A stretch of DNA of 32,000 nucleotides from Candidatus Korarchaeum cryptofilum OPF8. Its GTDB lineage: Archaea; Korarchaeota; Korarchaeia; Korarchaeales; Korarchaeaceae. The stretch lies in assembly GCF_000019605.1 (NCBI RefSeq), contig NC_010482.1, positions 1,110,001-1,142,000 on the forward strand. Reading direction: 5' to 3'. This document shows positions 5,802 to 25,714 of this stretch, piece after piece. Within the stretch, counting starts at the first letter, position 1, and the number at the start of each line of letters is the position of its first letter. Made by a program: the position numbers and the translations under genes. The notes below the pieces were generated by a model that saw nothing but the letters and a program-made list of their open reading frames with translations, ran no database searches and was not told where the DNA came from.

Positions 5802-6329
5802 TTGCTAATAGTAGGGGTTATGGGGAGCAGGAAGGATGTCCTCATGAAGCCCCTGATAAGGGCTTTCACGAACAGGAGCTATAGAGTAGCCGCTGCTACG
5901 CAGAATAGGAGGGTAGGAGTTCCGGATGAACTTAAAGAACTAGCGGAAGCGGGTTCCAGCCTCAGAATAGCTTGCTCAATAGATAGAGTTCTTATTTCAT
6001 CGAACTTCCCGTTGAGAGGGCTCGATGATATTATAAAACCGGTGTCCTCTCTCTCCCCTATCGAGCCTGATGTAATAGTTCTCTTCGGATTTGAGGATAT
6101 TTTAGGTAGGGAAGAAAGAGTACTGAAAGTGATAACTGCAAGCAGCTCTCATGAAGCTGAGCAACTCCTCGAGAGACTTTCAAAACCTGTGGTAGGCGTT
6201 TATGTAGAGAGGGGAGATTTTGAAGGAGGATACAAGGATTTAGATGTGTTGATAGGGGCTATAATTGAGGAAGGGATTAAAAGAAAGCTTTTACAACCTT
6301 CCCCATTGGGAGCCAAACTGGAAGGTTAA
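5802..6329 (+). CDS. Hypothetical protein, MobB-like architecture with a degenerate P-loop
   Basis: 175-aa ORF starting 4 nt after the ITPase stop. The N-terminus LIVGVMGSRKDVL sits where MobB-type proteins carry GxSGSGKTT. A later DVIVLFGFED resembles the MobB LvEGfK strand. The start is a TTG, and an ATG is available at 5820. Confidence 0.5.
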   Translation: MLIVGVMGSRKDVLMKPLIRAFTNRSYRVAAATQNRRVGVPDELKELAEAGSSLRIACSIDRVLISSNFPLRGLDDIIKPVSSLSPIEPDVIVLFGFEDILGREERVLKVITASSSHEAEQLLERLSKPVVGVYVERGDFEGGYKDLDVLIGAIIEEGIKRKLLQPSPLGAKLEG

Positions 6330-6366
6330 GCTTAATATTGGCGGAAGTATCGTTAGGGGGATCGGA

Positions 6367-6684
6367 ATGTTGACACTCAGCTTGGAGGTGACTGAGGTTA
6401 GGAAGACGCAATCGGGTATAGTGCTCTCATTGAGCAGGCCTAGTGGTATAGAGGAGATCCCCCCTCCTGAGAGTGAGGAGGAAGCTATGATGTTCCAGGT
6501 GATGAGAGCTATGGAGAAGTACATGAGGCTGCCGATTCCGATAGCTCAACCATCTGTGCCCACGGTCACTATAATACTGAACGAGGAGGAGTACGACAGG
6601 ATAGGTAGGCCCACTGTAGGGGATAGCTTGAGGTTGGTCATCTCGAAGGAGGAAGGCGGATTCAGGGTCGGTGTGGATTATTAA
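6367..6684 (+). CDS. Hypothetical small protein (105 aa)
   Basis: The ATG at 6367 is preceded by GGGGGA (6355-6360). The longer listed ORF (6265) would overlap the upstream gene by 65 nt. I recognise no family motif. Confidence 0.55.
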   Translation: MLTLSLEVTEVRKTQSGIVLSLSRPSGIEEIPPPESEEEAMMFQVMRAMEKYMRLPIPIAQPSVPTVTIILNEEEYDRIGRPTVGDSLRLVISKEEGGFRVGVDY

Positions 6685-7834: not shown

Positions 7835-8245
7835 ATGCCTATGGGTAGAGTATCCAGAACGGCTATATCTATACCGAGGGAGCTCATGAGTGACTTGGAT
7901 GATCTCCTCTCTCAACTGAATTTGAAGAGCAGATCTAAAGCTATATCTGAAGCTATAACCCTCTACATCGCTGAGAGGTACTGGGTTCTCTCCGATGTAG
8001 AGAAGGAAGTGGCTGGTGCGATAATAATGGTTTACGATCATCACAAGGAAAGCGAGATCACTGAAGTTCAGCATAAATACTTGGATCTCATAAGATCGAC
8101 ATCTCATGTGCACATCGATGAGGAGAGGTGCATGGAAGTTTTGATGGTCCTAGGATCCCTCTCTAGGGTCAGGGAGCTCTTCAAGGAACTTCAAGCCCTA
8201 GGTACAGCTGAGGTCCTCAAGCCCTTCCTAGTCCCTAGAGGATGA
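7835..8245 (+). CDS. nikR: Nickel-responsive transcriptional regulator NikR
   Basis: N-terminal ribbon-helix-helix (RTAISIPRELMSDLDDL...RSKAISEAI). C-terminal Ni-binding domain with YDHH ... VQHKY ... SHVHIDEERCMEV, which is the H-x-H-x5-C high-affinity site pattern. Confidence 0.9.
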   Translation: MPMGRVSRTAISIPRELMSDLDDLLSQLNLKSRSKAISEAITLYIAERYWVLSDVEKEVAGAIIMVYDHHKESEITEVQHKYLDLIRSTSHVHIDEERCMEVLMVLGSLSRVRELFKELQALGTAEVLKPFLVPRG

Positions 8246-9034
8246 AAGTGCTCTCTTAAGGGCATTTATCAGATCATCCATTCTGAGAGGGCATTCACTG
8301 AGAAAATGAGACAGTTCTTTGCATATCTTCACCGTTGCAGGAGCCTTCACGCCTATTTCTTCTAGGGGGGCCTCATATAAAATGTTCACTCTTCCCCCGG
8401 AGATAAGCTTTCCCTTATTAAATATATATACTTTATCCGCGACTTCTGAGGCGAGGTCAGAATCCTGAGTAGCTATTACCACTATTTTCCCCCTTTCCTT
8501 GAGTTTCCTCAGGATTTCCATGAGGGCTTCCATGCCCTTCAGATCCAGGGATGAGGAAGGCTCATCCAACAGGTATACCTCGGGATCCAGCGCTATGAGG
8601 CCTGCGAGCGCAACTCTAGCGATTTCACCTCCACTGAGCCTGAAAGGTGATCTATCCTCGAAACCTAGGAGCTCTAGAGCTTCCAATGCTCCTTTGACCC
8701 TCCTCTCTATCTCCTGATGTTCCAATTTCAGTTGTCTCGGTCCTAAGGAGACATCCTCTCCCACAGTAGGAGCTATTAACTGGTCAGATGGGTTCTGAAA
8801 GAGGATACCGCATATCTTCCTGTAATCCCTCCCTAAATTCTCACCATCAATCGTTATGGACCCTGAAGTTGGCTTTATGAGGCCCGCCAGTAGTAAGAGG
8901 AGTGTGCTCTTCCCAGATCCATTAGGCCCTAAGAGGCAAACTATTTCGCCTGAAGAGATGCAGAGGCTCACGTCTTCAATTGCCTTAGTCCCATCTGGAT
9001 AAGAGTAGCTCACGTTGTTCGCGCAGAGCTTCAT
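8228..9034 (-). CDS. cbiO: Ni/Co ECF-type transporter ATPase (CbiO/NikO)
   Basis: Walker A GPNGSGKST, signature LSGGEIARVALA, Walker B YLLDEPSS. The start abuts the cbiQ stop (9034/9035). The 3' end overlaps the nikR 3' end by 18 nt. Confidence 0.9.
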   Translation of the reverse strand: MKLCANNVSYSYPDGTKAIEDVSLCISSGEIVCLLGPNGSGKSTLLLLLAGLIKPTSGSITIDGENLGRDYRKICGILFQNPSDQLIAPTVGEDVSLGPRQLKLEHQEIERRVKGALEALELLGFEDRSPFRLSGGEIARVALAGLIALDPEVYLLDEPSSSLDLKGMEALMEILRKLKERGKIVVIATQDSDLASEVADKVYIFNKGKLISGGRVNILYEAPLEEIGVKAPATVKICKELSHFLSECPLRMDDLINALKRALSSSRD

Positions 9035-9769
9035 TCAAGCACCCAAGAAGAGGGGGACAAGGTAAGAAAAGGCTATCGCTACTAGAATTGAGGTGTCCCT
9101 AAAGCTGTTCCTCACCTCTAAATTCAGAGATCTCGCTTCCACGACGAGAGATGCCTTAAAGGCATCGTTGGGCCCCCTGAAGAAGAGCTCAGATGCTGCG
9201 ATTGAGAGAGTATCGTAAACGCTCCCCTCTATGATCCTAGATGCTTTGGCTAAGATCAGCTCGTTCAGAGATCTCAAATACCTCCCTATATGAATTATCA
9301 TTATCTCGAATGCTAGCCCTAGATTTCCGCCTAGAGCGGGCTCAATAAATTTACTGATGCCCATTATAATCCTCCTGAAACCTAGAAGCTGTATTAGGAA
9401 ACTGAGGGTCATTATGGAAGTAGCCACCCTCAGGGGCACTATTAAGATTCCATTTATCGTCTCTGTTGAGCTAAAAGCCCTGGGGATCATTATTATTAGG
9501 GAGAAGAGGAACCAGAGCGATGATATTCTCAGGGATCTGATGAGATCCCTGAGGCCGCATGAAGAGAAGAGGAGTATCGATGTCAAGAGGAATGAGAAGA
9601 TTAGTTGAGTGAGTTTAACTGAGAATGCTGAGATCGAAACAGAAAAAAGACATAAGAGGAAGGATAGAGTTGGGTTAGCGTTCAATCTACCGGTAGAGCT
9701 CTCTATAGATGATAACCAATCGGAGAAAGCCCTTATGAGACCATCGAAAGCCCTATCTATTCCCCTCAA
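9035..9769 (-). CDS. cbiQ: Ni/Co ECF transporter transmembrane component (CbiQ/NikQ, EcfT-like)
   Basis: A multi-helix hydrophobic protein sitting between cbiN-like and cbiO in the canonical cbiMNQO order. The exact start is uncertain. The listed start overlaps the upstream gene by 17 nt. Confidence 0.75.
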   Translation of the reverse strand: MRGIDRAFDGLIRAFSDWLSSIESSTGRLNANPTLSFLLCLFSVSISAFSVKLTQLIFSFLLTSILLFSSCGLRDLIRSLRISSLWFLFSLIIMIPRAFSSTETINGILIVPLRVATSIMTLSFLIQLLGFRRIIMGISKFIEPALGGNLGLAFEIMIIHIGRYLRSLNELILAKASRIIEGSVYDTLSIAASELFFRGPNDAFKASLVVEARSLNLEVRNSFRDTSILVAIAFSYLVPLFLGA

Positions 9770-10031
9770 CTTTACCCCTCTTAATCAGAGCGGGGAGCAG
9801 GAGGATGAAGACGCCTACGAATCCAGCTACAATGTAACCTAACTCATCCGGTAGCCCTGGAACTGTGTAATCTGGGAGTATCCCTCTCCATAGGGGCTCG
9901 GATTCCTTAATCCCTATGATCTCAGCTGCTAGGTCCAGTGGTTCCCTGTAGCCAACGATATTAGCTCCTATCACTCCGAAGAGCGGGCTTATGAGCACGA
10001 GAATTATTATCGCGATGTAGCTCTTCCTCAT
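9753..10031 (-). CDS. cbiN: Small two-helix membrane component of the Ni/Co transporter (CbiN position, PDGLE-domain-like)
   Basis: The ATG at 10031 overlaps the cbiM TGA (an ATGA overlap at 10028-10031). The 93-aa product has hydrophobic helices at both ends and a central PDYTVPGLPDELGY segment resembling the PDGLE motif. The upstream 51 aa of the listed ORF lie inside cbiM and are spurious. Confidence 0.7.
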   Translation of the reverse strand: MRKSYIAIIILVLISPLFGVIGANIVGYREPLDLAAEIIGIKESEPLWRGILPDYTVPGLPDELGYIVAGFVGVFILLLPALIKRGKVEGNR

Positions 10032-10636
10032 TTTATCAACCCCCTTAATGAGAGGTATTTCACTAAGAGGCCAGTGGCTATGCCCTCTATCACGCCGAGG
10101 GCCAAGTGCCATATCCCCATCACGGGGACAGTGATGCTCAGGGGATAGCCGAAGCTGGGGGATAGGCCCAGCTCGAAACCGCAAGTTACAGCTGCTAGAG
10201 TTATCCCGATCCAGCCCCCGAGGAAAGCTGCTAAGAATTTCCTCCCTAGATACTTCAAGCTAGCTTTATATATCGCGTAACCTGCGAAGACATCTACTAC
10301 AGCCATGTTGAACGCGTTAGCTCCTAGGGCTGTGATCCCCCCGTCCCCCATCAAGAGGCATTGAACGACTAAGTTCATGAACATAGCTAAGCAAGCTCCG
10401 AATGGACCTAGGAAAATGGATGCGAACGCTCCCCCAACGAAATGCGCTGATGTACCACCGGGAATCGGCCAATTCAACATTTGAGCCGCGAATATTGCTG
10501 CGGCCATTACAGAGAGGTAGTATACGCTGCCCCCCTCCCTGAAGTACTTTCTGCCTGAGTAGATCACGATGGCTAGCGATATGACGTAGAGCGAGAGTGA
10601 TACGAGCGGGTCCAGGAAGCCGTCGGGGATATGCAT
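10028..10636 (-). CDS. cbiM: Ni/Co ECF transporter substrate-capture component CbiM/NikM
   Basis: Hallmark metal-binding N-terminus MHIPDGFLD, plus multiple TM helices (202 aa). Confidence 0.9.
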   Translation of the reverse strand: MHIPDGFLDPLVSLSLYVISLAIVIYSGRKYFREGGSVYYLSVMAAAIFAAQMLNWPIPGGTSAHFVGGAFASIFLGPFGACLAMFMNLVVQCLLMGDGGITALGANAFNMAVVDVFAGYAIYKASLKYLGRKFLAAFLGGWIGITLAAVTCGFELGLSPSFGYPLSITVPVMGIWHLALGVIEGIATGLLVKYLSLRGLIK

Positions 10637-14180: not shown

Positions 14181-14643
14181 CAGCTCACTAAATTAAGCGA
14201 TGCATCATCTCATTAATAAGTTTAACTATAATGTGTTAGAAATTTATAGCTATTTAGATCAAGAAATAATAATGATTTATTTATAACTCAGTTATTTCTA
14301 TCATTAAATATTAAATAAACGATAAGGGAGAGGTATATTCTGTTTTTGTCTGGGAATCCTTCCTTTAGGGAATTTTTAGAGAGATAGTTCAAAATGAAGG
14401 AAGATACATATAAAATTTATATATAAATCATCAAAAATATACTTTATATAATGTTAAATTGATCATAAATATCCTTAATGAAAGATGCGAATGAGCTTAT
14501 ATTTTGATAAATATATTATTTTTTATCTCACCTTCATTAGCCAAATTGATGTATTTTTTAATGATAAGTCGATTGTTCTACCCAAGACAGAAGAGGAAAT
14601 ATTTTTATTATTTGTGGAGGCGCTTTTGGTGGGGGACTCATGG
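14181..14643. promoter_or_regulatory. Divergent, very AT-rich control region between hypFD and the hdr/mvh operon
   Basis: 463 bp with no credible ORF. TATA-like ATTTTTATTA (14601-14610) lies upstream of the 14644 ATG. CTTATTAAT (minus strand, about 14212-14220) lies upstream of hypF. There is an inverted repeat AGAAATAA (14262-14269) / TTATTTCT (14292-14299). Confidence 0.5.
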
Positions 14644-15780
14644 ATGGCCCTCATGCCAACTGAGAAGTTCTATGTTTTAACCGAAGATGTGCCGAGAGAA
14701 CTACTGAAGCTTGGAGGAGACGGTATAAGAAAGTGTTACCAATGCGGCACTTGCACTGCAATCTGCCCAAACTCCGAAATCCAAACAGTGAGAGTGAGAA
14801 GATTAATAAAGAAGATTCAGCTGGGAGCAAAAGATGGAGTTCTAGGGGATCCCACACCATGGACCTGCTACTTCTGCGGTGATTGCAATGCTACATGCCC
14901 GAAGGATGCTACTCCAGGGTATATCATGGATTCCGCTAGAAAATATCAAATAATTAATTATAGCATCCTTAAGTTGGGTAAACTTTTCTATAATAAGCTC
15001 TCTATGGCATTAGCTTTCATTGTAATGACGGCTATCGGATTGTTAGGGATAATGGTATGGCCGGGTAGCTTGAGCGAGCTCGATCTAGGGAGGGCAGATA
15101 TATATAGCTTCATGGGCTCCGAGCTAATACATGAGATAGGCCTCTGGCTGTTAGCCTACGTAATTTTAGTAACATTGGCCAATATATTCAATATGTACAG
15201 ATATATGAGAAAGGCATATCAAGGAAAAAATACTAATGCATCTCTCTGGATCAAGGAGCTATTCTATACAATAAAGGAGGCTCTGTTCCAATCAAGATTG
15301 AGATGCCAAAAGGGAACAAGCTATAGGTATTTGTCCCATTTATCGATTTTCTGGGGGTTCATTTTAACCTTTGCCGCTACAGGAACTCACTTCATATGGC
15401 TTATGTTATATCCTGGAACGTCTGAGCCCTCCTACATCACTTACGCTGCTAGGATTTTAGGGATAATTGGAGGAATCCTCCTCATATACGGAAGCGTCTA
15501 TTACGTCATTCACAGGCTGAAGAAAGACGACGTCTATGCGGAAAGGACTTATCTTCCAGACTGGTGGTTCCTCTCGTTGATCACGGTGATCGCGATCACT
15601 GGCTTCTTAACGACTTCTGGTGTATATTTGAATGCCCCTATACTAACTTACGCCTCCTATGGTGTTCATCTCATGGCAGTATTCTATCTAATAGTCTCAG
15701 CGCCATTTTCGAAGTTCGCTCATCTGATATATAGGCCACTTGCCCTCTGGTTCGCGAAGGTATGGGAGGGAGAAATATGA
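14644..15780 (+). CDS. Fusion protein: HdrC-like 2x[4Fe-4S] ferredoxin domain plus a NarI/HdrE/DsrM-like polytopic membrane (putative cytochrome b) domain
   Basis: CYQCGTCTAICP and CYFCGDCNATCP are followed by about 6 hydrophobic helices carrying His residues (IHEIG, YLSHLS, GTHF, VIHR, GVHLM, SKFAHLIYRP). The start is placed at ATG 14644 (GGTGGGGG at 14628-14635), with 14653 also possible. The listed N-terminal 53 aa (from 14485) are translated AT-rich spacer. Confidence 0.75.
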   Translation: MALMPTEKFYVLTEDVPRELLKLGGDGIRKCYQCGTCTAICPNSEIQTVRVRRLIKKIQLGAKDGVLGDPTPWTCYFCGDCNATCPKDATPGYIMDSARKYQIINYSILKLGKLFYNKLSMALAFIVMTAIGLLGIMVWPGSLSELDLGRADIYSFMGSELIHEIGLWLLAYVILVTLANIFNMYRYMRKAYQGKNTNASLWIKELFYTIKEALFQSRLRCQKGTSYRYLSHLSIFWGFILTFAATGTHFIWLMLYPGTSEPSYITYAARILGIIGGILLIYGSVYYVIHRLKKDDVYAERTYLPDWWFLSLITVIAITGFLTTSGVYLNAPILTYASYGVHLMAVFYLIVSAPFSKFAHLIYRPLALWFAKVWEGEI

Positions 15781-17057
15781 AACCCGTAGCAGTTATTGGT
15801 GGTGGTATAGCGGGTATTCAGGCGGCTCTAGATCTAGCTAACCAGGGTATAAAAGTCTACCTAATTGAGAGAACTCCTTCAATAGGAGGGAGAATGGCTC
15901 AGCTGGATAAGACGTTCCCCACACTTGACTGCAGCATGTGCATCCTGACGCCGAGGATGGTGGAAGTTGCGAGAAATAAGAATATAGAGCTCCTGACTTA
16001 CTGCGATCTTATTGATCTAAAGGGAAGCGTTGGGAACTTCAAATTGAAAGTTAGAAAGAAACCTAGGTACGTAGATGTGGATAAGTGTACCGGTTGCATG
16101 GTCTGCTCCAAGTACTGCCCATCCAAAGTTCCTGATGAGTATAATGAGGGGATGAGTGAAAGGAAGGCTATTTATATTCCATTTCCTCAATCAGTTCCTC
16201 TAAAAGCCACGATAGATGCAGAACACTGCCTTTGGTTCCAGAAGGGGATATGCAGGAACTGCGAGAAGTTCTGCCCAGCTAAGGCCATAAATTATGATCA
16301 GAAACCTGAAGATATTGAGCTTGATGTCGCTGCTGTTATATTCGCTACCGGATATGAACTGATAATGGATGCAGAGTTTCTCAGAGAGCAGTATGGATAT
16401 AGTAGGTATGCGAACGTTTACACGAACTTGGAGTATGAGAGGATCGTCTCAGCGACAGGACCGACTGGAGGAGAGATCTTGAGGAGGTCTGACAAAGCTC
16501 ATCCGAAGAGAATAGCTTTCATTCAATGTGTTTGCTCAAGAGACGCTAGAATCAACCCGAATTGTTCTTCAATATGCTGCATGGCATCCGTTAAGGAGGC
16601 CATATTGACCAAGGAGCATATGCACGATGTTGATGTGACAGTCTTCTACATGGACGTCAGGGCCTTCGGAAAGGGTTACCAGGAATTCTATGATAGAGCA
16701 AAGCAGGAGTTCGGTATAAGATTCGTGAGAAGTAAGCCCGCTAAAATAGTAGAGGATCCCAGTACAAAGAATCTCATAGTTTACTATGAGGATACTCAAA
16801 GTAGTAAGTTCGTTAAGGAGGAATTCGATATGGTAGTCCTAGCGGTAGGGGTGAGACCTGTGAAACCCGATTCATTCATCCCGATGAGTGAGGATTCATT
16901 CGCTCAGCTCAAGGATCCAATTATGGAGCCGGTTAGCTCCCCGATCCCCGGTATCTTCGTGGTAGGGATGTTAAGCGGCCCCAAGGATATACCCGACTCA
17001 GTCGTTCAAGCGAGCGCTGCCGCGATGAAGGCATCTCTAATAGCTGTGAGCCATTAG
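15777..17057 (+). CDS. hdrA: HdrA-like flavoprotein, short form (no N-terminal Cys domain, no C-terminal ferredoxin domain)
   Basis: [16 protein letters not shown] FAD fold, the [15 protein letters not shown] motif, an inserted ferredoxin ([12 protein letters not shown] and [13 protein letters not shown]) and FIQCVCSRD...[10 protein letters not shown]. The ATG at 15777 overlaps the upstream TGA (ATGA). Confidence 0.85.
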   Translation: [426 protein letters not shown]

Positions 17058-17062
17058 GGGGG

Positions 17063-19039
17063 ATGGGCATGAGTGAAAAGGTTAGAGGATCTGAGAATAT
17101 CAGGATAGGTGTTTATGTTTGTCACTGCGGTTTGAACATAGCTGGCGTGATAAACGTGAAGGAGCTCGTTGAATACGCTAAAACTTTGCCTAATGTAGTG
17201 GTTGCCAAGGAATACATATTCATGTGCTCCTCGCCGGGTCAGAACTTGATAAAGGAGGATATTGAGCAATGTAAACTCAACAGGATAGTTATAGCTGCAT
17301 GCGGGCCTGAGATGCATGAACCTACGTTCAGGGCGGCAGTATCCGAGGCCGGGCTCAACCCGTTCTTAATAGATCTAATAGCCATACGTGAGGGAAGCTC
17401 TTGGGTGCACTATGATGATCCTAAAAGAGCTACGGAGAAGGCAAAGGACATGATAAGGATGTCAGTAGCTAGAGTTAGGAACCTGGAACCCTTGGAGAAG
17501 ATAAAGGGAGAGGTCAAGCACGAAGCGCTTGTGGTGGGTGGAGGAGTTGCGGGGCTTACAGCAGCTCTAGATCTAGCTAATAGGGGGTTCGATGTCCATT
17601 TAGTCGAGAAGAGACCGACTCTTGGAGGGCATACTGCTATGATGGGGGTCCTGAACTGGGAAGGGAGGAGATTGTCGGGTAGGGAGATTGTGAGGACTCT
17701 GATTAAGATGGTCAAGGATAATCCGAAGATAAAGGTCTACACGAACTCCGAGGTAGTTAAAGTCGATGGATCAATAGGAAACTTCAAGATAACTGTTATG
17801 AGGAAGCCTAGATACGTAAATGAGAGATGTAATTTATGCGGAAAATGTGAGGAGGTCTGCCCAGTTTCCGTCCCCGACGAGTACGAGTACGGCATAAAGA
17901 AGAGGAAGGCCATATATCTCCCCTATTCAGGCGCCTATCCGGAAAGGTATGTGATAGATCCCAATTCATGCACCTTCTGCGGCAAATGCGTCGAAGTATG
18001 CCCGGTCAATGCGATAGACCTCAATGAGAAGGAGGGGGAAATCTCCCTCAATGTTGGGGCGATAGTCATGACCTTAGGACACGATGAATATGAGCCTGCT
18101 ATAGGGGAGTATGGCTACGGTCTCTCCAAGAACGTGATAACATTGAGTCAGCTTAAGAGATATCTGAGTGATGATGGACCGACTAAAGGAGAGCTCCTCG
18201 TTAACGGCACTAAACCGAAGAACATCGTCTTCATATCATGCGTTGGCTCTCTGGGTACAACTCCTCATGCGAATCAATATTGCTCGAGAACGTGCTGCAT
18301 GGCTGCCCTATCCGAGATGCTCCATCTAAAGAGCAAGTACCCCGATGCGAATATCTTCTATGTGCACAAGGATATCAGGGTCTATGGAAGGGATGAGAAA
18401 CTGTATTGGGAAGCCATAGATAACTTAATCAAGTTCGTTAGGTTTGATGAGCCTCCTAAAGTCTCTATCGATGGTAACAAAACTTTCGTTGATGTGTATG
18501 AGAGCACCTTGCAGGAAAGGATTTTAATACCAGCCGATCTCGTCGTCTTAGTCACTGGAATGACTCCAATAAAGGAGGTAGATGCCGTTAGAAGTTTATT
18601 CAAGGTTGGATGCGGTGGAGATGGCTTCCTGAAGGAGCTCCACCTCAAGTTGAATCCTGTAGAGTCGCTGACCGGAGGGATATTCCTAGCTGGGACTGCA
18701 ACAGGTCCGAAGAGTGTTGCTGAAAGTATAATAGCTGGAAGTGCGGCTGCTGTGAAAGCTTCTATACTACTAGCTAAGGATCATATCGAGGTTGAGCCAT
18801 TAATTGCCGAGGTCGATGAGAGCAAATGCTCTGGCTGTGGGATATGTGTATCAATCTGCCCGTTCAACGCGATATCTATGCAGAAGAGGGAGGATGGGAC
18901 CAGGTACTCGAAGATAGATCCCCTACTTTGCGAGGGTTGTGGGACCTGCGTTGCCGCTTGTCCCTCGGCAGCCATACAGCAGTACGGGTATAAGGATAAG
19001 CAGATAATCCCGCAGATATTGGCTGTATTCGGGAGGTGA
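17063..19039 (+). CDS. hdrA: HdrA-like flavoprotein, full-length form
   Basis: N-terminal Cys domain (VYVCHCGLNIAG, FMCSS, IAACGP). FAD fold VVGGGVAGLTAALDLA. Inserted ferredoxin (CNLCGKCEEVCP, CTFCGKCVEVCPVNAI). FISCVGS...YCSRTCCMAA. C-terminal 2x[4Fe-4S] (CSGCGICVSICP, CEGCGTCVAACP). An alternative ATG at 17069 has better spacing to the G-run at 17057-17062. Confidence 0.9.
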   Translation: MGMSEKVRGSENIRIGVYVCHCGLNIAGVINVKELVEYAKTLPNVVVAKEYIFMCSSPGQNLIKEDIEQCKLNRIVIAACGPEMHEPTFRAAVSEAGLNPFLIDLIAIREGSSWVHYDDPKRATEKAKDMIRMSVARVRNLEPLEKIKGEVKHEALVVGGGVAGLTAALDLANRGFDVHLVEKRPTLGGHTAMMGVLNWEGRRLSGREIVRTLIKMVKDNPKIKVYTNSEVVKVDGSIGNFKITVMRKPRYVNERCNLCGKCEEVCPVSVPDEYEYGIKKRKAIYLPYSGAYPERYVIDPNSCTFCGKCVEVCPVNAIDLNEKEGEISLNVGAIVMTLGHDEYEPAIGEYGYGLSKNVITLSQLKRYLSDDGPTKGELLVNGTKPKNIVFISCVGSLGTTPHANQYCSRTCCMAALSEMLHLKSKYPDANIFYVHKDIRVYGRDEKLYWEAIDNLIKFVRFDEPPKVSIDGNKTFVDVYESTLQERILIPADLVVLVTGMTPIKEVDAVRSLFKVGCGGDGFLKELHLKLNPVESLTGGIFLAGTATGPKSVAESIIAGSAAAVKASILLAKDHIEVEPLIAEVDESKCSGCGICVSICPFNAISMQKREDGTRYSKIDPLLCEGCGTCVAACPSAAIQQYGYKDKQIIPQILAVFGR

Positions 19040-19044
19040 TATTC

Positions 19045-19470
19045 ATGAGTGGTGAATTCGAACCAAAGATAGTAGTTATCGCATGCCACTGGTGTACGTA
19101 CCAAGCGATAAATCTCGCCGGTACCAGCAGGATGAAGTATCCACCTAATGTGAGGACGATAAGAGTCATGTGCTCCGGCAGAACTGATCCTCAGTTCGTG
19201 ATTGAGGCCTTCAGAAACGGTGCTGATGGCGTCTTAGTAGCCGGATGTCATCCTGGCGATTGTCACTATGTCAACGGTAATATGAAGACAATGAGGAGGA
19301 CCGTTCTGCTCGAGAAAATGCTGGAGCAGATGGGGATTGAGAAGGGAAGGTTTAGGAGAGAATGGATCTCGGCAGCCGAAGCTAAGAAATGGGTCGATGT
19401 TGTTACTGAGATGGTGGATCAGATAAAGAAGTTGGGCCCGCTTAAGCTAGCTGGAAGGGGTGATGAGTGA
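19045..19470 (+). CDS. mvhD: Methyl-viologen-reducing hydrogenase delta subunit MvhD
   Basis: KIVVIACHWCTY...RVMCSGR...VAGCHPGDCHY. GGGAGG (19031-19036) lies 8 nt upstream of the ATG at 19045. A GTG at 19036 overlapping the hdrA stop is an alternative start. Confidence 0.9.
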   Translation: MSGEFEPKIVVIACHWCTYQAINLAGTSRMKYPPNVRTIRVMCSGRTDPQFVIEAFRNGADGVLVAGCHPGDCHYVNGNMKTMRRTVLLEKMLEQMGIEKGRFRREWISAAEAKKWVDVVTEMVDQIKKLGPLKLAGRGDE

Positions 19471-20429
19471 TGGCAAAGGCTAAGATAGCCTTCTATTGGT
19501 GCGCCAGCTGTGGAGGTTGTGAGGAAGCCCAAGTCGATCTAGCTGATAAACTATTTGACTTGATAGAGGCCGCAGATATTGTGCTATGGCCAGTCGCTAT
19601 GGACTTCAAGAAGGAGGACGTGGAGAAAGTGGGAGATGGCTCTATAGATGTCGCTATCATAAACGGTGGGATAAGGACGAGTGAGCATGAGGAGATGGTG
19701 AAGCTCCTCAGAAGAAAGTCGAAGCTCGTTATTGCCTATGGCAGCTGCGCACATATGGGAGGGATCCCTGCCCTCGCTAATGCTTATACGAGGGAGTCCA
19801 TTCTGAAGTATGTATACGAAGAAGCGCCTACTGTAACTAACCCAGAAGGGAAGAGGCCTAAAACTAGAGTGAGTGTGGACGGAATGGATTTTGAGTTACC
19901 TGAGTTTTTAGAATACTTAGATCCATTGGATGCTGTAATAGACGTCGATTATTACATTCCGGGATGCCCTCCGACACCGGAGATAACTTGGGAGGCCGTA
20001 TCTTCTATACTCTCCGGCAATCTACCACCGAAGGGCCACGTGTTCGGTAGCGATAGGGCTTTGTGCTACGAGTGTCCGCTCAATGAGACAAAGCCTGAGA
20101 AGGTGACTATTGACACTATAAAGAGGGTCCATCAAACCGAGCTGGATCCTAATAAATGCTACTTGACTCAGGGTGTATTGTGCATGGGACCGGTCACCAG
20201 GGGCGGATGCAAGGCTCTGTGCATCAAGGGGAACATGCCATGTACGGGATGCTTCGGTCCAGTCGATGGTGTAAGCTATCAAGGGGCTAAAGCGCTTTCC
20301 TACTTCTCCTCAGTAATAAACATCGATGATGAGGATGCCTTCAGGAAGCTTGTTGAGGAGGTCGGTGTCGATCCTCTTGGATGGTTCTCCAAGTACTGCC
20401 TCGGGAAGGGTACCATAAAGAGGAGGTGA
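19470..20429 (+). CDS. mvhG: [NiFe]-hydrogenase small subunit, group 3c type (MvhG)
   Basis: N-terminal FYWCASCGGCEEA, with no twin-arginine signal. Also GSCAHMGG, GCPP and CMGPVTRGGCKALCIKGNMPCTGCFGP. The ATG overlaps the mvhD TGA by 1 nt. Confidence 0.9.
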   Translation: MAKAKIAFYWCASCGGCEEAQVDLADKLFDLIEAADIVLWPVAMDFKKEDVEKVGDGSIDVAIINGGIRTSEHEEMVKLLRRKSKLVIAYGSCAHMGGIPALANAYTRESILKYVYEEAPTVTNPEGKRPKTRVSVDGMDFELPEFLEYLDPLDAVIDVDYYIPGCPPTPEITWEAVSSILSGNLPPKGHVFGSDRALCYECPLNETKPEKVTIDTIKRVHQTELDPNKCYLTQGVLCMGPVTRGGCKALCIKGNMPCTGCFGPVDGVSYQGAKALSYFSSVINIDDEDAFRKLVEEVGVDPLGWFSKYCLGKGTIKRR

Positions 20430-20434
20430 TACTG

Positions 20435-21895
20435 ATGAAGGAGGTCATAATAGATCCAATAACGAGGTTGGAAGGGCATGGAAAGATAACGATAAAGTTG
20501 GATGAGAATGGAAACGTCAAAAGAGCTCTACTTCAAATTCCAGAGCTAAGAGGATTCGAGAAGTTTCTAGTAGGCAGAACTGTTGAAGATGCTCCTCAGA
20601 TAACTTCTAGGATATGCGGTGTATGCCCATGGGCCCATCATATGGCCGCTACGAAGGCCCTAGATGATTTATTCAAAGTAGATCCTCCGCTAACAGCTAA
20701 GCTGATCAGGGAGTTCGTCTACAATGTATTTATGCTCGAGGATCATTCTCTGCACTTCTACGTATTAGGAGGACCCGATTTCTTGGTAGGACCGAAGGCT
20801 CCGAAGGAGGAGAGGAACCTCGTCGGCATAATTAGGAAGCTGGGCGCCGATATAGTCAAGAACATTATAGTGACCAGAAAGAAGCTCAGGTATTTGGAGC
20901 AGCTTATAGGAGGGAAGATAACGCACCCTGTCTTGGGACTGCCAGGAGGGGTCGCCAAACCCCTCTCAGATGAGGACTGGAAGTTATGCTATGAGACAAC
21001 TAAGGAGGGTATAGAATTCGCTAAATTCGCGTACAGGGCCCTTAAGGATCTGGTCCTCTCGAACGATGAGTATGTAGAGCTCATGAGATCCGATATCTAT
21101 ACACATAGGACTTATTACATGGGGCTAGTTGATCAAGGGAACAATGTTAATTTCTATGACGGGAAGATAAGAGTCGTAGATCCTGAAGGGAAAGAATTTG
21201 CTAAATTTGGTGCGAGAGAGTACTTAGATCACATAGCTGAAGACGTGGAACCTTGGAGCTACGTCAGGTTCACCTATTTGAGGAGGGTCGGCTGGAAGGG
21301 GTTCATCGATGGGAGAGAGAGCGGTATATACAGCGTTGCCCCACTGGCTAGGCTGAATGCCTCGGATGGGATGGCAACGCCGATGGCCAATGAGCTCTAT
21401 AAGGAGTTCTACCAAGCAATGGGAGGAAAGCCCGTCCATAATACCTTAGCTTTCCACTGGGCTAGGGTAGTCGAGATGGTCTATGCTGCTGAGAGAATGA
21501 TGGAGCTTATTGAGAATCCTGAGATAAAGAGGAAAGAAGTCAGAAACATCCCAAAGGAGAAACCGGATGTTGGGATAGGCGTCGTCGAAGCGCCCAGGGG
21601 GACCCTTATACATCACTACGAGACCGATGAGAAGGGTATAATAAAGAAAGCTAATCTAATCGTCGCGACACAAAACAATTCGGCAAGGATGGTTTTATCC
21701 GTAGAGAAAGCAGCAAAATCCCTCATAAAGAATGGGAAGGTAGATGATGGAATATTGAATATGGTCGAGATGGCGTTCAGAGCTTACGATCCATGCCATG
21801 CATGCGCAACACACTCTCTTCCGGGATCTATGCCCCTCATAGTCAGGATATACGACAGTGAGGACAACCTGATAAAAGAGATAAGAAGGGACTAA
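20435..21895 (+). CDS. mvhA: [NiFe]-hydrogenase large subunit, group 3c type (MvhA)
   Basis: ITRLEGHG, the L1 motif RICGVCPWAH and the C-terminal DPCHACATH, followed by a 26-aa extension. AGGAGG (20421-20426) lies 8 nt upstream of the ATG at 20435. Confidence 0.95.
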   Translation: MKEVIIDPITRLEGHGKITIKLDENGNVKRALLQIPELRGFEKFLVGRTVEDAPQITSRICGVCPWAHHMAATKALDDLFKVDPPLTAKLIREFVYNVFMLEDHSLHFYVLGGPDFLVGPKAPKEERNLVGIIRKLGADIVKNIIVTRKKLRYLEQLIGGKITHPVLGLPGGVAKPLSDEDWKLCYETTKEGIEFAKFAYRALKDLVLSNDEYVELMRSDIYTHRTYYMGLVDQGNNVNFYDGKIRVVDPEGKEFAKFGAREYLDHIAEDVEPWSYVRFTYLRRVGWKGFIDGRESGIYSVAPLARLNASDGMATPMANELYKEFYQAMGGKPVHNTLAFHWARVVEMVYAAERMMELIENPEIKRKEVRNIPKEKPDVGIGVVEAPRGTLIHHYETDEKGIIKKANLIVATQNNSARMVLSVEKAAKSLIKNGKVDDGILNMVEMAFRAYDPCHACATHSLPGSMPLIVRIYDSEDNLIKEIRRD

Positions 21896-21903
21896 ACTCA
21901 CTC

Positions 21904-21916
21904 TTTTTTTAAAAAA
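21904..21916 (+). terminator. T7A6 tract between mvhA and the maturation protease gene (possible partial terminator)
   Basis: TTTTTTTAAAAAA lies 9 nt after the mvhA stop and runs into the ATG of the next gene. Confidence 0.3.
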
Positions 21917-22374
21917 TGAGGATCCTCGTCCTCGCTCTTGGTAATGATTTATTTGGGGATGATGCAGTCGCTTTCCTCGTAGCTGATGAAATATCATCTT
22001 CTCTCCCTGAGGATTCCGTAAATGTTATAAAATCCAGTGAATCTGGGTTACATCTCCTGGACTACTTCCTAATGGGATACGATCATATAATACTGGTAGA
22101 CTCCATCGTGGGAGAAGAGGTCGGTAGGATCGTCCAGATAGACCCTAAATCTTTGAGGAGGTCCCTCGCGCCCTCTCCACATTACAGCGGACTCCCTGAG
22201 ATCCTAGCATTACTCGATGAAATAGGAGAGGATCTCCCTGAGGTCGAGATCTATGCTATAGTTATAAGAGAGCCTAGCTTGGGCTCTCCTATTAGCGACG
22301 ATGTCAAAGTTGCAGCCAAAAAGTTAGCTGAGATTCTCTTAGAGAGAATATCGCAAATCCTCCGAGCTTCTTAA
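21916..22374 (+). CDS. Hydrogenase maturation endopeptidase (HycI/HybD/FrhD family)
   Basis: ILVLALGNDLFGDDAVA, a central ILVDS and a downstream SPHYSG His. 152 aa. It is placed directly after the large-subunit gene that carries a cleavable C-terminal extension. Confidence 0.85.
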   Translation: MRILVLALGNDLFGDDAVAFLVADEISSSLPEDSVNVIKSSESGLHLLDYFLMGYDHIILVDSIVGEEVGRIVQIDPKSLRRSLAPSPHYSGLPEILALLDEIGEDLPEVEIYAIVIREPSLGSPISDDVKVAAKKLAEILLERISQILRAS

Positions 22375-23624: not shown

Positions 23625-23837
23625 ATGTGCCTAGGGATACCCGGTAAAGTCCTAGAGGTTAGGGGGAATATAGCCCTAGTCGATTTCGGAGGGGTCACTA
23701 GGGAAGTAGATGCTAGTCTCGAGGAAGTGGCTCCAGGGGACTACGTATTAGTTCATGTGGGCATGATAATAGCTAAGATAGATGAGAAGGAAGCGATGGA
23801 GATATCCAAGCTTTTGAGCGAGATCTTGAGCTATTAG
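23625..23837 (+). CDS. hypC: Hydrogenase assembly chaperone HypC
   Basis: MCLGIPGKV, with the essential Cys2. The start is therefore placed at ATG 23625 rather than the listed GTG at 23616. 70 aa. Confidence 0.9.
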   Translation: MCLGIPGKVLEVRGNIALVDFGGVTREVDASLEEVAPGDYVLVHVGMIIAKIDEKEAMEISKLLSEILSY

Positions 23838-24925: not shown

Positions 24926-25714
24926 ATGGATATAGATAGGATAAGGGAAAGCGCAGAAAAGATTGTGGAGAAGGATCCTGAGATCTCGGATTCCATTCAC
25001 CTCTTCCTCGATATATTGGCTGTCCAGCTGGAGATAATGGATGAGATAATCGGGAAGATAGATCCGGAGGAGCTAATTGCTGATAGATATCCTCTCTTCG
25101 ATGCGATAGGCATCCCGAAGGTGGAGCCCGAGCTTTGGACGAGGTGCATGGATGAGATAATATCGAGAGTCTCATCCCACAGGGAGGACCTTAGAGAGGA
25201 ATTGGATGCTGTTAGAGAATCTCTTCACGAGAACTTGTTCGATCCGGAGGCTCTGGCCATTCTTTCCTTCAAAGGAGATATGAATTACGCGAGAGGAGTT
25301 TCCGTGAGCATAGGAGTGAGCGAGGACCTCCTCAGTGCTCTAGGGATCTGGACGATACAGCCCATTTTCATGGCGATAAGGGAGCTCTCTAAGGAAATTA
25401 AGGGATGGAATGCCGGGTTCTGTCCGATATGCGGTAGTTACACTAGGACATCTTTCCTGAAGGGAGATAAGGTCTTCATGAAGTGTGAGATTTGTGGAGA
25501 GGAGTGGGAATATCCCAGTAACACATGTCCATTCTGTGGTTCGAAGAAGATAGAGCCCCTCGAGTTGAAGGGAGAGACATCTCAAATTATGAGGTGTGAT
25601 GAATGCGGAGCTCATTGGAATTTGATAAATGAGGACTTACTCGGGGACATTTCAAGAGAGATTTACCCTATGCTAACTTTGAAACTAGAAAGTATGTTAG
25701 ATGAGGGGATTTAG
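24926..25714 (+). CDS. fdhE: FdhE-like protein (four CxxC rubredoxin-type motifs)
   Basis: CPICGS-x17-CEICGEEW-x7-CPFCGS-x19-CDECGAHW reproduces the FdhE pattern, and the N-terminal half looks helical. GGAGG lies 9 nt upstream, 45 nt after the hypE stop. Confidence 0.7.
   Translation: MDIDRIRESAEKIVEKDPEISDSIHLFLDILAVQLEIMDEIIGKIDPEELIADRYPLFDAIGIPKVEPELWTRCMDEIISRVSSHREDLREELDAVRESLHENLFDPEALAILSFKGDMNYARGVSVSIGVSEDLLSALGIWTIQPIFMAIRELSKEIKGWNAGFCPICGSYTRTSFLKGDKVFMKCEICGEEWEYPSNTCPFCGSKKIEPLELKGETSQIMRCDECGAHWNLINEDLLGDISREIYPMLTLKLESMLDEGI

Follow-up and report, generated by a model that had tools for sequence, protein, structure and literature searches.

Introduction

In the methanogen complexes MvhAGD-HdrABC, Fdh-Hdr and Elp-Hdr (5ODC, 7BKB, 8RVU, 8RWN), identical chains of four domains each pair into an HdrA homodimer, which has two arms as well as two active flavins and docks HdrBC. 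The two protomers serve one another, the N-terminal arm of one acting on Cys194/Cys197 and the flavin adenine dinucleotide (FAD) of the other. Here we describe a pair of adjacent hdrA genes, one short and one long, in a 32,000-nucleotide stretch of the genome of Candidatus (Ca.) Korarchaeum cryptofilum OPF8 (NC_010482.1, positions 1,110,001 to 1,142,000; this whole stretch is the window, and coordinates count from its first nucleotide). Neither product is a four-domain HdrA that bears an N-terminal domain as well as the Cys194/Cys197 pair: these features are split over the two chains. We argue that the short and long proteins very probably pair as a heterodimer, in which they are the unlike protomers of a single asymmetric HdrA.

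The reciprocal relationship between HdrA protomers has been described in some detail. The mobile input arm consists of the HdrA N-terminal domain, the C-terminal ferredoxin domain and MvhD (PMC12350162). According to cryo-electron microscopy (cryo-EM) studies this arm swings, and the FAD and Cys pair of the partner are faced either by the [2Fe-2S] cluster of MvhD or by HA3, the shuttle cluster of the N-terminal domain; in state 1, MvhD residues Cys16, His68 and Asp71 face the HdrA Cys pair. The pair, which is Cys/Sec (selenocysteine) in M. maripaludis, may be a redox relay, as the cryo-EM work proposes. Ferredoxin reduction in the solved complexes proceeds via the ferredoxin domain inserted in the HdrA core.

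Asymmetric versions of HdrA have also been reported. A heterodimer has been proposed for the tandem or fused HdrA proteins of anaerobic methanotrophic archaea (ANME) and for those of Moorella (Chadwick et al., 2022, PMC9012536). BamE of class II benzoyl-CoA reductase (BCRII) is described in a cryo-EM preprint as an HdrA dimer fused into one chain, where one FAD bifurcates and the other is structural, and the same BCRII preprint gives a lysine at the flavin N5 as the hallmark of bifurcating HdrA-type flavins (10.64898/2026.04.10.717634). In Ca. Methanoglobus hypatiae a gene cluster of the kind described below is reported to be highly expressed, and its electrons are proposed to pass from H2 to menaquinone and ferredoxin (PMC10945360; bioRxiv 10.1101/2022.12.01.518715). 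The heterodimer logic, the gene cluster and, in preprint form, the structure of a fused relative are all already described, and the pair is not new as a discovery.

Results

Two HdrA proteins with complementary parts

The two genes lie on the same strand, 5 bp apart, and the best NCBIfam matches of both products are the HdrA2 and HdrA models. The 5ODC sequence was rebuilt from the alignments and aligned with both paralogs and with 240 database relatives. The short protein, of 426 amino acids (aa; 15777..17057, on the plus strand, as are all features below unless stated), is a thioredoxin-reductase-like FAD core with an inserted ferredoxin domain. It aligns to residues 147–563 of M. thermolithotrophicus HdrA (5ODC_A; E 3e-141), starts at the FAD fold and lacks both an N-terminal and a C-terminal domain, so that what it misses is exactly the HdrA portion of the mobile arm. 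It keeps the CxxC pair C52-S-M-C55 (‘LDCSMC’, 15930..15941), which the alignment equates with Cys194/Cys197 of 5ODC, the HA4 motif C251/C263/C267/C268 (‘CVCSRD...CSSICC’) followed by K273, the counterpart of Lys409 (together 16527..16595), and all eight cysteines of the inserted ferredoxin domain. Its AlphaFold 2 (AF2) model, with a predicted local distance difference test (pLDDT) score of 88.8, fits 8rwn_A, an HdrA core chain without the arm, with a template modelling (TM) score of 0.94 and a root-mean-square deviation of 1.8 Å in Foldseek.

Two peculiarities of the short protein may be recorded here. C253 (16533-16535) is an extra cysteine beside the first HA4 ligand (‘CVCSRD’) and is found in 85 of 121 members of the short family, while a five-residue insertion at C151-x7-C159 (16227-16274) gives the inserted ferredoxin domain a second cluster motif of the form C-x7-C-x2-C-x3-C, as it does in 73 of the 121.

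The long protein (658 aa; 17063..19039, one gene caller favouring a start at 17069) aligns to residues 2–650 of 5ODC_A (E 2e-183) and comprises an N-terminal cluster domain, a divergent FAD core, an inserted ferredoxin domain and a C-terminal 2×[4Fe-4S] domain. The first of these, an MvhD-like domain recognised by a hidden Markov model (residues 14–144, 17102..17494), carries Cys20, Cys22, Cys55 and Cys80, equivalent to Cys11, Cys13, Cys46 and Cys71 of 5ODC, for the shuttle cluster HA3. The C-terminal ferredoxin domain (residues 577–646, 18791..19000), which the cryo-EM literature makes part of the mobile input arm, retains its eight cysteines, as the HA4 motif and the inserted ferredoxin domain retain theirs. 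The core differs from 5ODC at several positions: Ser and Glu stand in place of Cys194 and Cys197, ‘GSRD’ has become ‘GSLG’, Lys409 is replaced by Ser (S417) and S112 occupies the position of Cys103 (‘REGSSWVH’). In place of the CxxC-type segment the alignment puts a remodelled, Cys-free segment, G188–L213 (‘GGHTAMMGVLNWEGRRLSGREIVRTL’, 17624..17701), which is predicted to be folded (AF2 pLDDT about 78–83). The missing pair cannot be rescued by realignment, because the long protein is without any cysteine between residues 81 and 255. Its AF2 model (pLDDT 89.2) matches full-length 5ODC_A with a TM score of 0.88 (Foldseek).

The alignments to 5ODC_A, with which the AF2 models agree, bear out every sequence observation in a preliminary description of this DNA. 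That description had also stated that the N-terminal [4Fe-4S] cluster of HdrA takes one Cys ligand from the partner protomer's thioredoxin-reductase domain, and had supposed that, should this ligand lie in the DCSxC segment, the short paralog could donate it to the long one. The statement is correct: the ligand is Cys197 (Chadwick et al., 2022, PMC9012536). When the numbering is checked on the rebuilt 5ODC sequence, Cys197 is the second cysteine of D-C194-S-I-C197, inside DCSxC, so that the ligand missing from the long paralog can be provided in trans by the short one.

Conservation in the two families

Conservation was counted over 120 cluster representatives for each family. Cys194 and Cys197 are present in 120/120 short proteins, and the terminal domains are absent from 119 of them. 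All 120 long proteins have the four N-domain cysteines, and the CxxC pair is missing from 117; the three exceptions that retain it are fusions of about 1090 aa. Decay of the core is one-sided, with 39 positions common to canonical HdrA and the short family that are lost in the long family and only seven for the converse.

Some features of the window's long protein do not extend to its family. The preliminary description had counted the loss of Cys103 as part of the complementarity, a view that does not hold, as 77 of 120 long-family members keep this residue; because it is present in those members only, it is not essential in the family. Loss of Lys409 was similarly considered as a family rule and rejected, the lysine being retained in 78 of 118 long members. 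Both losses are traits of a subset of the long family that includes the window protein. GxGxxG, E173 and the GG motif are present in all long members, and with them the long-family core probably still binds FAD. The inserted-ferredoxin cysteines of the long protein are conserved in 118/118, though superfluous to the published electron path.

A second, reciprocal complementarity

The CxxC pair has a reciprocal counterpart on the long chain, of which we found no mention in the accessible portions of the papers cited here. This is an E-A-H-x-K loop, residues 520–524 of 5ODC, which in the long protein is E525-x-H527-x-K529 (18635-18649). It is invariant in, and confined to, cores that share their chain with an N-terminal domain (39/39 canonical cores, 10/10 full-length long, 7/7 truncated long and 45–46 of 46 second cores of fusions; seen also in loci L004–L090), and is lost in all the arm-less, CxxC-bearing cores surveyed. 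In the AF2 monomer of the long protein, residues 527–536 are the sole internal stretch with pLDDT below 50; in that of the short protein the sole such segment is residues 46–53, which hold the CxxC pair. Because each is the only internal segment of its monomer model to fall so low, the models hint that both loops are interface elements.

It is conceivable, as a tentative extension that we rate somewhat below an even chance, that the loop completes the flavin/CxxC site of the partner in trans, forming a composite two-chain active site in a membrane-anchored hydrogenase that splits the electrons of H2 between quinone and ferredoxin. If true, this would be a type of respiratory enzyme, as yet unpurified, in Korarchaeota and other thermophilic archaea. 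The same part of the long protein (18611..18649) includes C517 (‘KVGCGG’, 18611-18613), a cysteine conserved in 108 of 118 long-family members, the QmoC-linked clade; this cysteine is absent from canonical HdrA, where the position is Arg, Lys or Gln, and from the second core in the other surveyed tandem pairs and fusions, where it is mostly Leu.

Adjacency, fusion and age of the pair

HdrA architectures were surveyed in 90 loci. A contig scan with the short protein mostly gave ordinary HdrA at about 50% identity, matching chiefly via the generic peptide MAQLDKTF, and the true orthologous loci were fetched separately. Fragmentary and unclassified open reading frames (ORFs) apart, three main patterns were seen, in which N stands for the N-terminal domain, CC for the CxxC pair and Cfd for the C-terminal ferredoxin domain: N-core[CC]-Cfd, which is the canonical form; a tandem form in which N-core[no CC]-Cfd comes after core[CC]; and a fused form, core[CC]-N-core[no CC]-Cfd, in a chain of about 1010 aa. 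A further fusion topology of about 1090 aa, N-core[CC]-core[no CC]-Cfd, is found in P0172 (labelled Nezhaarchaeota), P0177 and P0182. Fusions in two topologies amount to Rosetta-stone evidence for an interaction between the short and long proteins.

The two proteins could instead work in separate complexes, for example a long homodimer with MvhADG and HdrBC encoded elsewhere, and the short protein with the QmoC-like product of the upstream gene as a QmoA-like, quinone-linked flavoprotein. The distance between the paralogs (35% identity) would suit such a division, as would the FAD fingerprints, HA4 motif and inserted ferredoxin domain retained by the long protein and the presence of canonical hdrCBA near the cluster in a metagenome-assembled genome (MAG) of the Caldarchaeales. 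A long/long homodimer, however, would have two arms, no CxxC pair and, in this organism, no N5 lysine, and a short/short dimer would be without an arm for electron delivery. Moreover, the short and long genes are adjacent in every surveyed locus with enough flank, with junctions of 4–5 bp, versions fused into a single chain exist, and BamE shows the fused arrangement working as one unit. We consider separate complexes unlikely.

A different question is how old the pair is. The preliminary description took it for subfunctionalisation after a tandem duplication; on a lineage-specific account a canonical hdrA would have been duplicated recently, with complementary losses, inside an ordinary MvhAGD-HdrABC heterodisulfide reductase. 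The adjacency of the genes and the complementarity of their losses are what such a history would leave. However, the core identity of short to long is 35%, against 51% (short) and 42% (long) to methanogen HdrA, and both families span archaeal phyla, each protein sharing 55–70% identity with its orthologues in Archaeoglobaceae, Bathyarchaeia, Caldarchaeales and Acidilobaceae (66% for the short and 58% for the long copy at the Archaeoglobaceae locus L090). A neighbour-joining tree built from 156 cores unites every CxxC-less, N-domain-linked core in a single clade (63 sequences, 69% bootstrap), within which the QmoC-linked long cores are a subclade with 100% bootstrap, and places the short cores with the first cores of fusions. 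Finally, no hdrB or hdrC (CCG-domain ORF) was found among the scanned ORFs of the 32 kb window, a qmoC-like gene standing in that place; the preliminary description had overlooked both this absence and the gene, which lies directly upstream of short hdrA. Taken together, the identities, the cross-phylum families, the tree and the lack of hdrB/hdrC from the window effectively refute a recent duplication, to which we attach hardly any probability. By these comparisons the split between short and long is ancient, not lineage-specific, and probably a single event.

Operon and genomic context

The HdrA pair is here part of a known hydrogenase/membrane-anchor operon and not of a classical heterodisulfide reductase. 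The order of genes is qmoC-like, hdrA-short, hdrA-long, mvhD, mvhG, mvhA, hycI, and packing is tight, with junctions that overlap or measure 5–6 bp. The first gene (14644..15780), whose stop overlaps the start of short hdrA by 4 bp, encodes a membrane subunit in which an HdrC-like domain with two CxxCxxCxxxCP motifs is fused to a multi-helix, cytochrome-b-type membrane domain. It matches the NCBIfam qmoC model NF038018 over its full length (7–360 of 360; E 5e-64), but its 217 bits fall short of the curated cutoff, which is 300, so that by this score the product is QmoC-like and not a QmoC equivalog. Partial matches to the HdrC and TcuB models were obtained too, and in Pfam Fer4 domains with a weak match to Nitrate_red_gam; three His residues in the membrane part are invariant among the eight orthologues compared. 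The longest ORF begins at 14485, adding an AT-rich N-terminal extension of 53 codons (14485-14643) that has no counterpart in orthologues, and the true start is probably near 14644, in agreement with gene callers and orthologues.

Downstream of the pair is a group 3c hydrogenase module, identified by its FlpD, VhuG and VhuA matches. The [2Fe-2S] adaptor MvhD (19036..19470) starts at 19036 (GTG) or 19045 (ATG), overlapping or abutting the long hdrA stop; it matches Pfam FlpD (E 5e-54) and 5ODC_D (E 1e-48) and retains the equivalents of Cys16, His68 and Asp71. MvhG, the small subunit of the [NiFe]-hydrogenase (19467..20429), matches Pfam Oxidored_q6 and NCBIfam VhuG (E 5e-58), and MvhA, the large subunit, of group 3c type (20435..21895), matches Pfam NiFeSe_Hases and NCBIfam VhuA (E 7e-116). 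The conserved block ends with a HycI-type hydrogenase maturation protease (21916..22374), assigned from precomputed Pfam HycI matches on identical contigs and orthologous loci.

Given the QmoC-like gene, the operon might be read as a ‘type II’ QmoABC of dissimilatory sulfur metabolism, with the HdrA pair as QmoA and QmoB linking the membrane pool (and H2 via Mvh) to adenosine 5′-phosphosulfate reductase or DsrC, and no ferredoxin bifurcation. The full-length match to the qmoC model fits this reading. Type II QmoAB proteins, moreover, are said by Neukirchen et al. and in the DiSCo paper to be nearer to HdrA than to bacterial Qmo, and are noted from Vulcanisaeta moutnovskia as well as from organisms that may or may not have Dsr/Apr (PMC10504309; PMC8477390), and DiSCo is reported to label one Methanoglobus copy QmoB. 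However, no sat, apr (aprBA) or dsr gene was found in the 32 kb window, where hyp, nik and cbi genes lie around the operon; the cluster is reported as highly expressed in Ca. Methanoglobus, described as being without Sat, AprAB and DsrAB; the full bifurcation-type cofactor set (HA3 arm, CxxC pair and inserted ferredoxin domain) is conserved; and the qmoC score falls under the equivalog cutoff. A role of this kind seems to us rather improbable, if a little less so than separate complexes, and we continue to favour an asymmetric HdrA within a hydrogenase operon.

The seven-gene block is found also in the closest relatives, which carry the label Ca. Korarchaeota and show 84% identity, as well as in MAGs of Bathyarchaeota, Caldarchaeales, Acidilobaceae and Archaeoglobaceae, mvhA not being called after mvhG in the block of the Caldarchaeales MAG. 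In the locus from that group with canonical HdrA genes (L086; 2690-6111, 14731-15834), hdrC-hdrB-hdrA lie a few genes upstream of the asymmetric cluster, and a LAGLIDADG endonuclease gene follows mvhG at the place expected for mvhA. Other tandem short/long pairs have hdrC and hdrB, an hdrD-like fusion or NfnAB/GltD-like genes at the place of the qmoC-like gene (L007, 1394-2835; L011, 3-602; L022, 1963-3120; L012, 11434-13655). Because hdrC and hdrB or an hdrD-like fusion replace qmoC in these, the asymmetric HdrA pair seems a portable module, one whose acceptor subunits can be exchanged.

Around the operon in the window, hypF and hypD lie to one side, and hypA, hypC, hypE and a nickel uptake cluster are nearby. 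The hypC gene (23625-23837, plus strand; 70 aa, ‘MCLGIPG...’) sits between an Mrp/NUBPL-like ATPase gene and hypE and fell under the default threshold for listing ORFs. At 7835-10636 a NikR-like regulator with a C-terminal nickel-binding domain stands beside a minus-strand CbiM/ABC-type uptake cluster for nickel or cobalt, and both adjoin hypD/hypF and the hydrogenase operon. Other genes of the window encode a RACo-type corrinoid activation protein (2Fe-2S and ASKHA; 1215-2744), an Arcadin-1-like cytoskeletal protein (6265-6684) and a Zn-ribbon/FdhE-like protein (24926-25714), the last also found downstream of hypE in the related locus L084.

Discussion

We propose that short HdrA is the catalytic protomer, bearing the bifurcating flavin, and that long HdrA is the arm-bearing, non-bifurcating one. 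The short protein would be a rigid catalytic half, with FAD and its N5 lysine K273, the CxxC pair C52/C55, HA4 and the inserted-ferredoxin clusters HA5 and HA6. The long protein would bear the sole mobile arm, made up of the N-terminal HA3 domain and the C-terminal 2×[4Fe-4S] domain and carrying MvhD-MvhG-MvhA, and its own flavin site would be degenerate, having no CxxC pair, no N5 lysine and GSLG for GSRD. In this scheme MvhA would oxidise H2 and pass the electrons to the [2Fe-2S] cluster of MvhD on the arm, which may then swing over the short protomer and load its FAD through or near C52/C55. From there the high-potential electron would leave the short protein by its HA4 cluster and enter the QmoC-like subunit, presumed to dock on the pair, where HdrC-like clusters and hemes would take it on to quinone, while the low-potential electron would hop to HA3 on the long arm and pass through HA5/HA6 to ferredoxin. 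We lean only slightly towards the view that the enzyme couples H2 to quinone and ferredoxin in this way. The explanation as a whole, an asymmetric heterodimer in a hydrogenase/QmoC-type operon with the electron path just outlined, we consider probable.

The obligate, single-arm heterodimer put forward in the preliminary description survives as the best reading of the pair. The part of that proposal which does not is the assignment of the C-terminal domain as a ferredoxin-reducing arm: in the solved complexes this domain lies where electrons enter, and ferredoxin is reduced there through the inserted ferredoxin domain, which both window paralogs have.

Several observations pull the other way. 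Recent cryo-EM papers (2026) recast Cys194/Cys197 as a redox relay, mobile and with an unknown ligand bound to it, and not as a fixed cluster ligand. Whether fixed ligand or relay, the arm of one protomer acts on the CxxC/FAD site of the other, and it is this relationship that the paralogs divide between them. The long family keeps HA4, the FAD fingerprints and all eight inserted-ferredoxin cysteines (118/118), and so is not a mere scaffold, and two thirds of it keep Lys409. The QmoC-like subunit scores below the NCBI QmoC cutoff, and heme and quinone binding are attributed to it by inference only. Lastly, the Nezhaarchaeota-labelled fusions attach the N-terminal domain to the CxxC-bearing core. 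That the N-terminal domain always lies on the CxxC-less chain was rejected as an absolute rule on account of these N-core[CC]-core-Cfd fusions; because of them, the firm rule is the stoichiometry of one arm to one CxxC pair to two cores, not which chain bears the arm.

The locus is a further example of a conserved module composed of MvhAGD, an asymmetric HdrA pair and a QmoC-like anchor. Such a module could give hydrogen-oxidising thermophiles reduced ferredoxin while feeding the membrane quinone pool, a mechanism that would be the non-methanogenic counterpart of heterodisulfide-driven bifurcation. In its two-gene form with a full-length second core, it offers a clean natural system in which to ask which of the flavins bifurcates and what part the ‘silent’ half plays.

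How, then, does the pair relate to the systems already described? With methanogen HdrA it shares the fold, the cofactor motifs and the MvhD/G/A partners, along with the trans relation between arm and active site; it differs in consisting of two genes with one arm and one CxxC site, and in having a QmoC-like membrane protein replace HdrBC in the operon. The likeness to QmoABC, whether type I or ‘type II’, lies in the combination of a small HdrA-like flavoprotein with a large HdrA-like protein tied to an MvhD module, and in a membrane subunit that fuses an HdrC-like Fe-S domain to an HdrE/NarI-like cytochrome b. The gene order here, however, is C-A-B and not A-B-C, MvhD has a gene of its own, the set includes a [NiFe]-hydrogenase, the aprBA neighbourhood is missing, the QmoC score is 217 bits against a cutoff of 300, and both flavoproteins score as HdrA/HdrA2, not as Qmo.

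The same gene content and order are found in the MvhAGD/two HdrA/QmoC-HdrC-fusion cluster described for Ca. Methanoglobus nevadensis and Ca. Methanoglobus hypatiae (Buessecker 2023; Lynes 2024, PMC10945360). That cluster belongs to another phylum, and the accessible text of these papers speaks of ‘two HdrA homologs’ without spelling out their complementarity. The published signature of the heterodimer proposed for ANME HdrA5/6, 12/13 and 3/4 and for Moorella MetFV-Hdr (PMC9012536) is exactly that of the window pair: tandem hdrA genes, of which the long one has the N-domain cysteines and no CxxC and the short one has CxxC and starts at the FAD fold. The differences are in host lineage and in gene context (mvhDGA with a qmoC-like gene). 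A further distinction is that the core of the long copy in the window is full-length and aligns end to end with canonical HdrA, whereas in most of the other tandem or fused examples surveyed the second core matches the core profile only over its C-terminal approximately 250 positions.

BamE, finally, is described as an asymmetric pseudo-dimer in which a Cys-x-x-Cys pair and a bifurcating FAD, the latter having Lys at its N5, belong to the first core, a non-bifurcating FAD without the Lys belongs to the second, and a single MvhD-type adaptor rides on the swinging arm. K273 of the short protein and S417 of the long one mirror the first and second cores, respectively. BamE is reported to be one fused chain with seven clusters that docks BamD (HdrBC-like), BamBC and BamGHI, whereas the window pair consists of two chains with cysteines for nine clusters (by Cys count), and has hydrogenase input and a membrane subunit.

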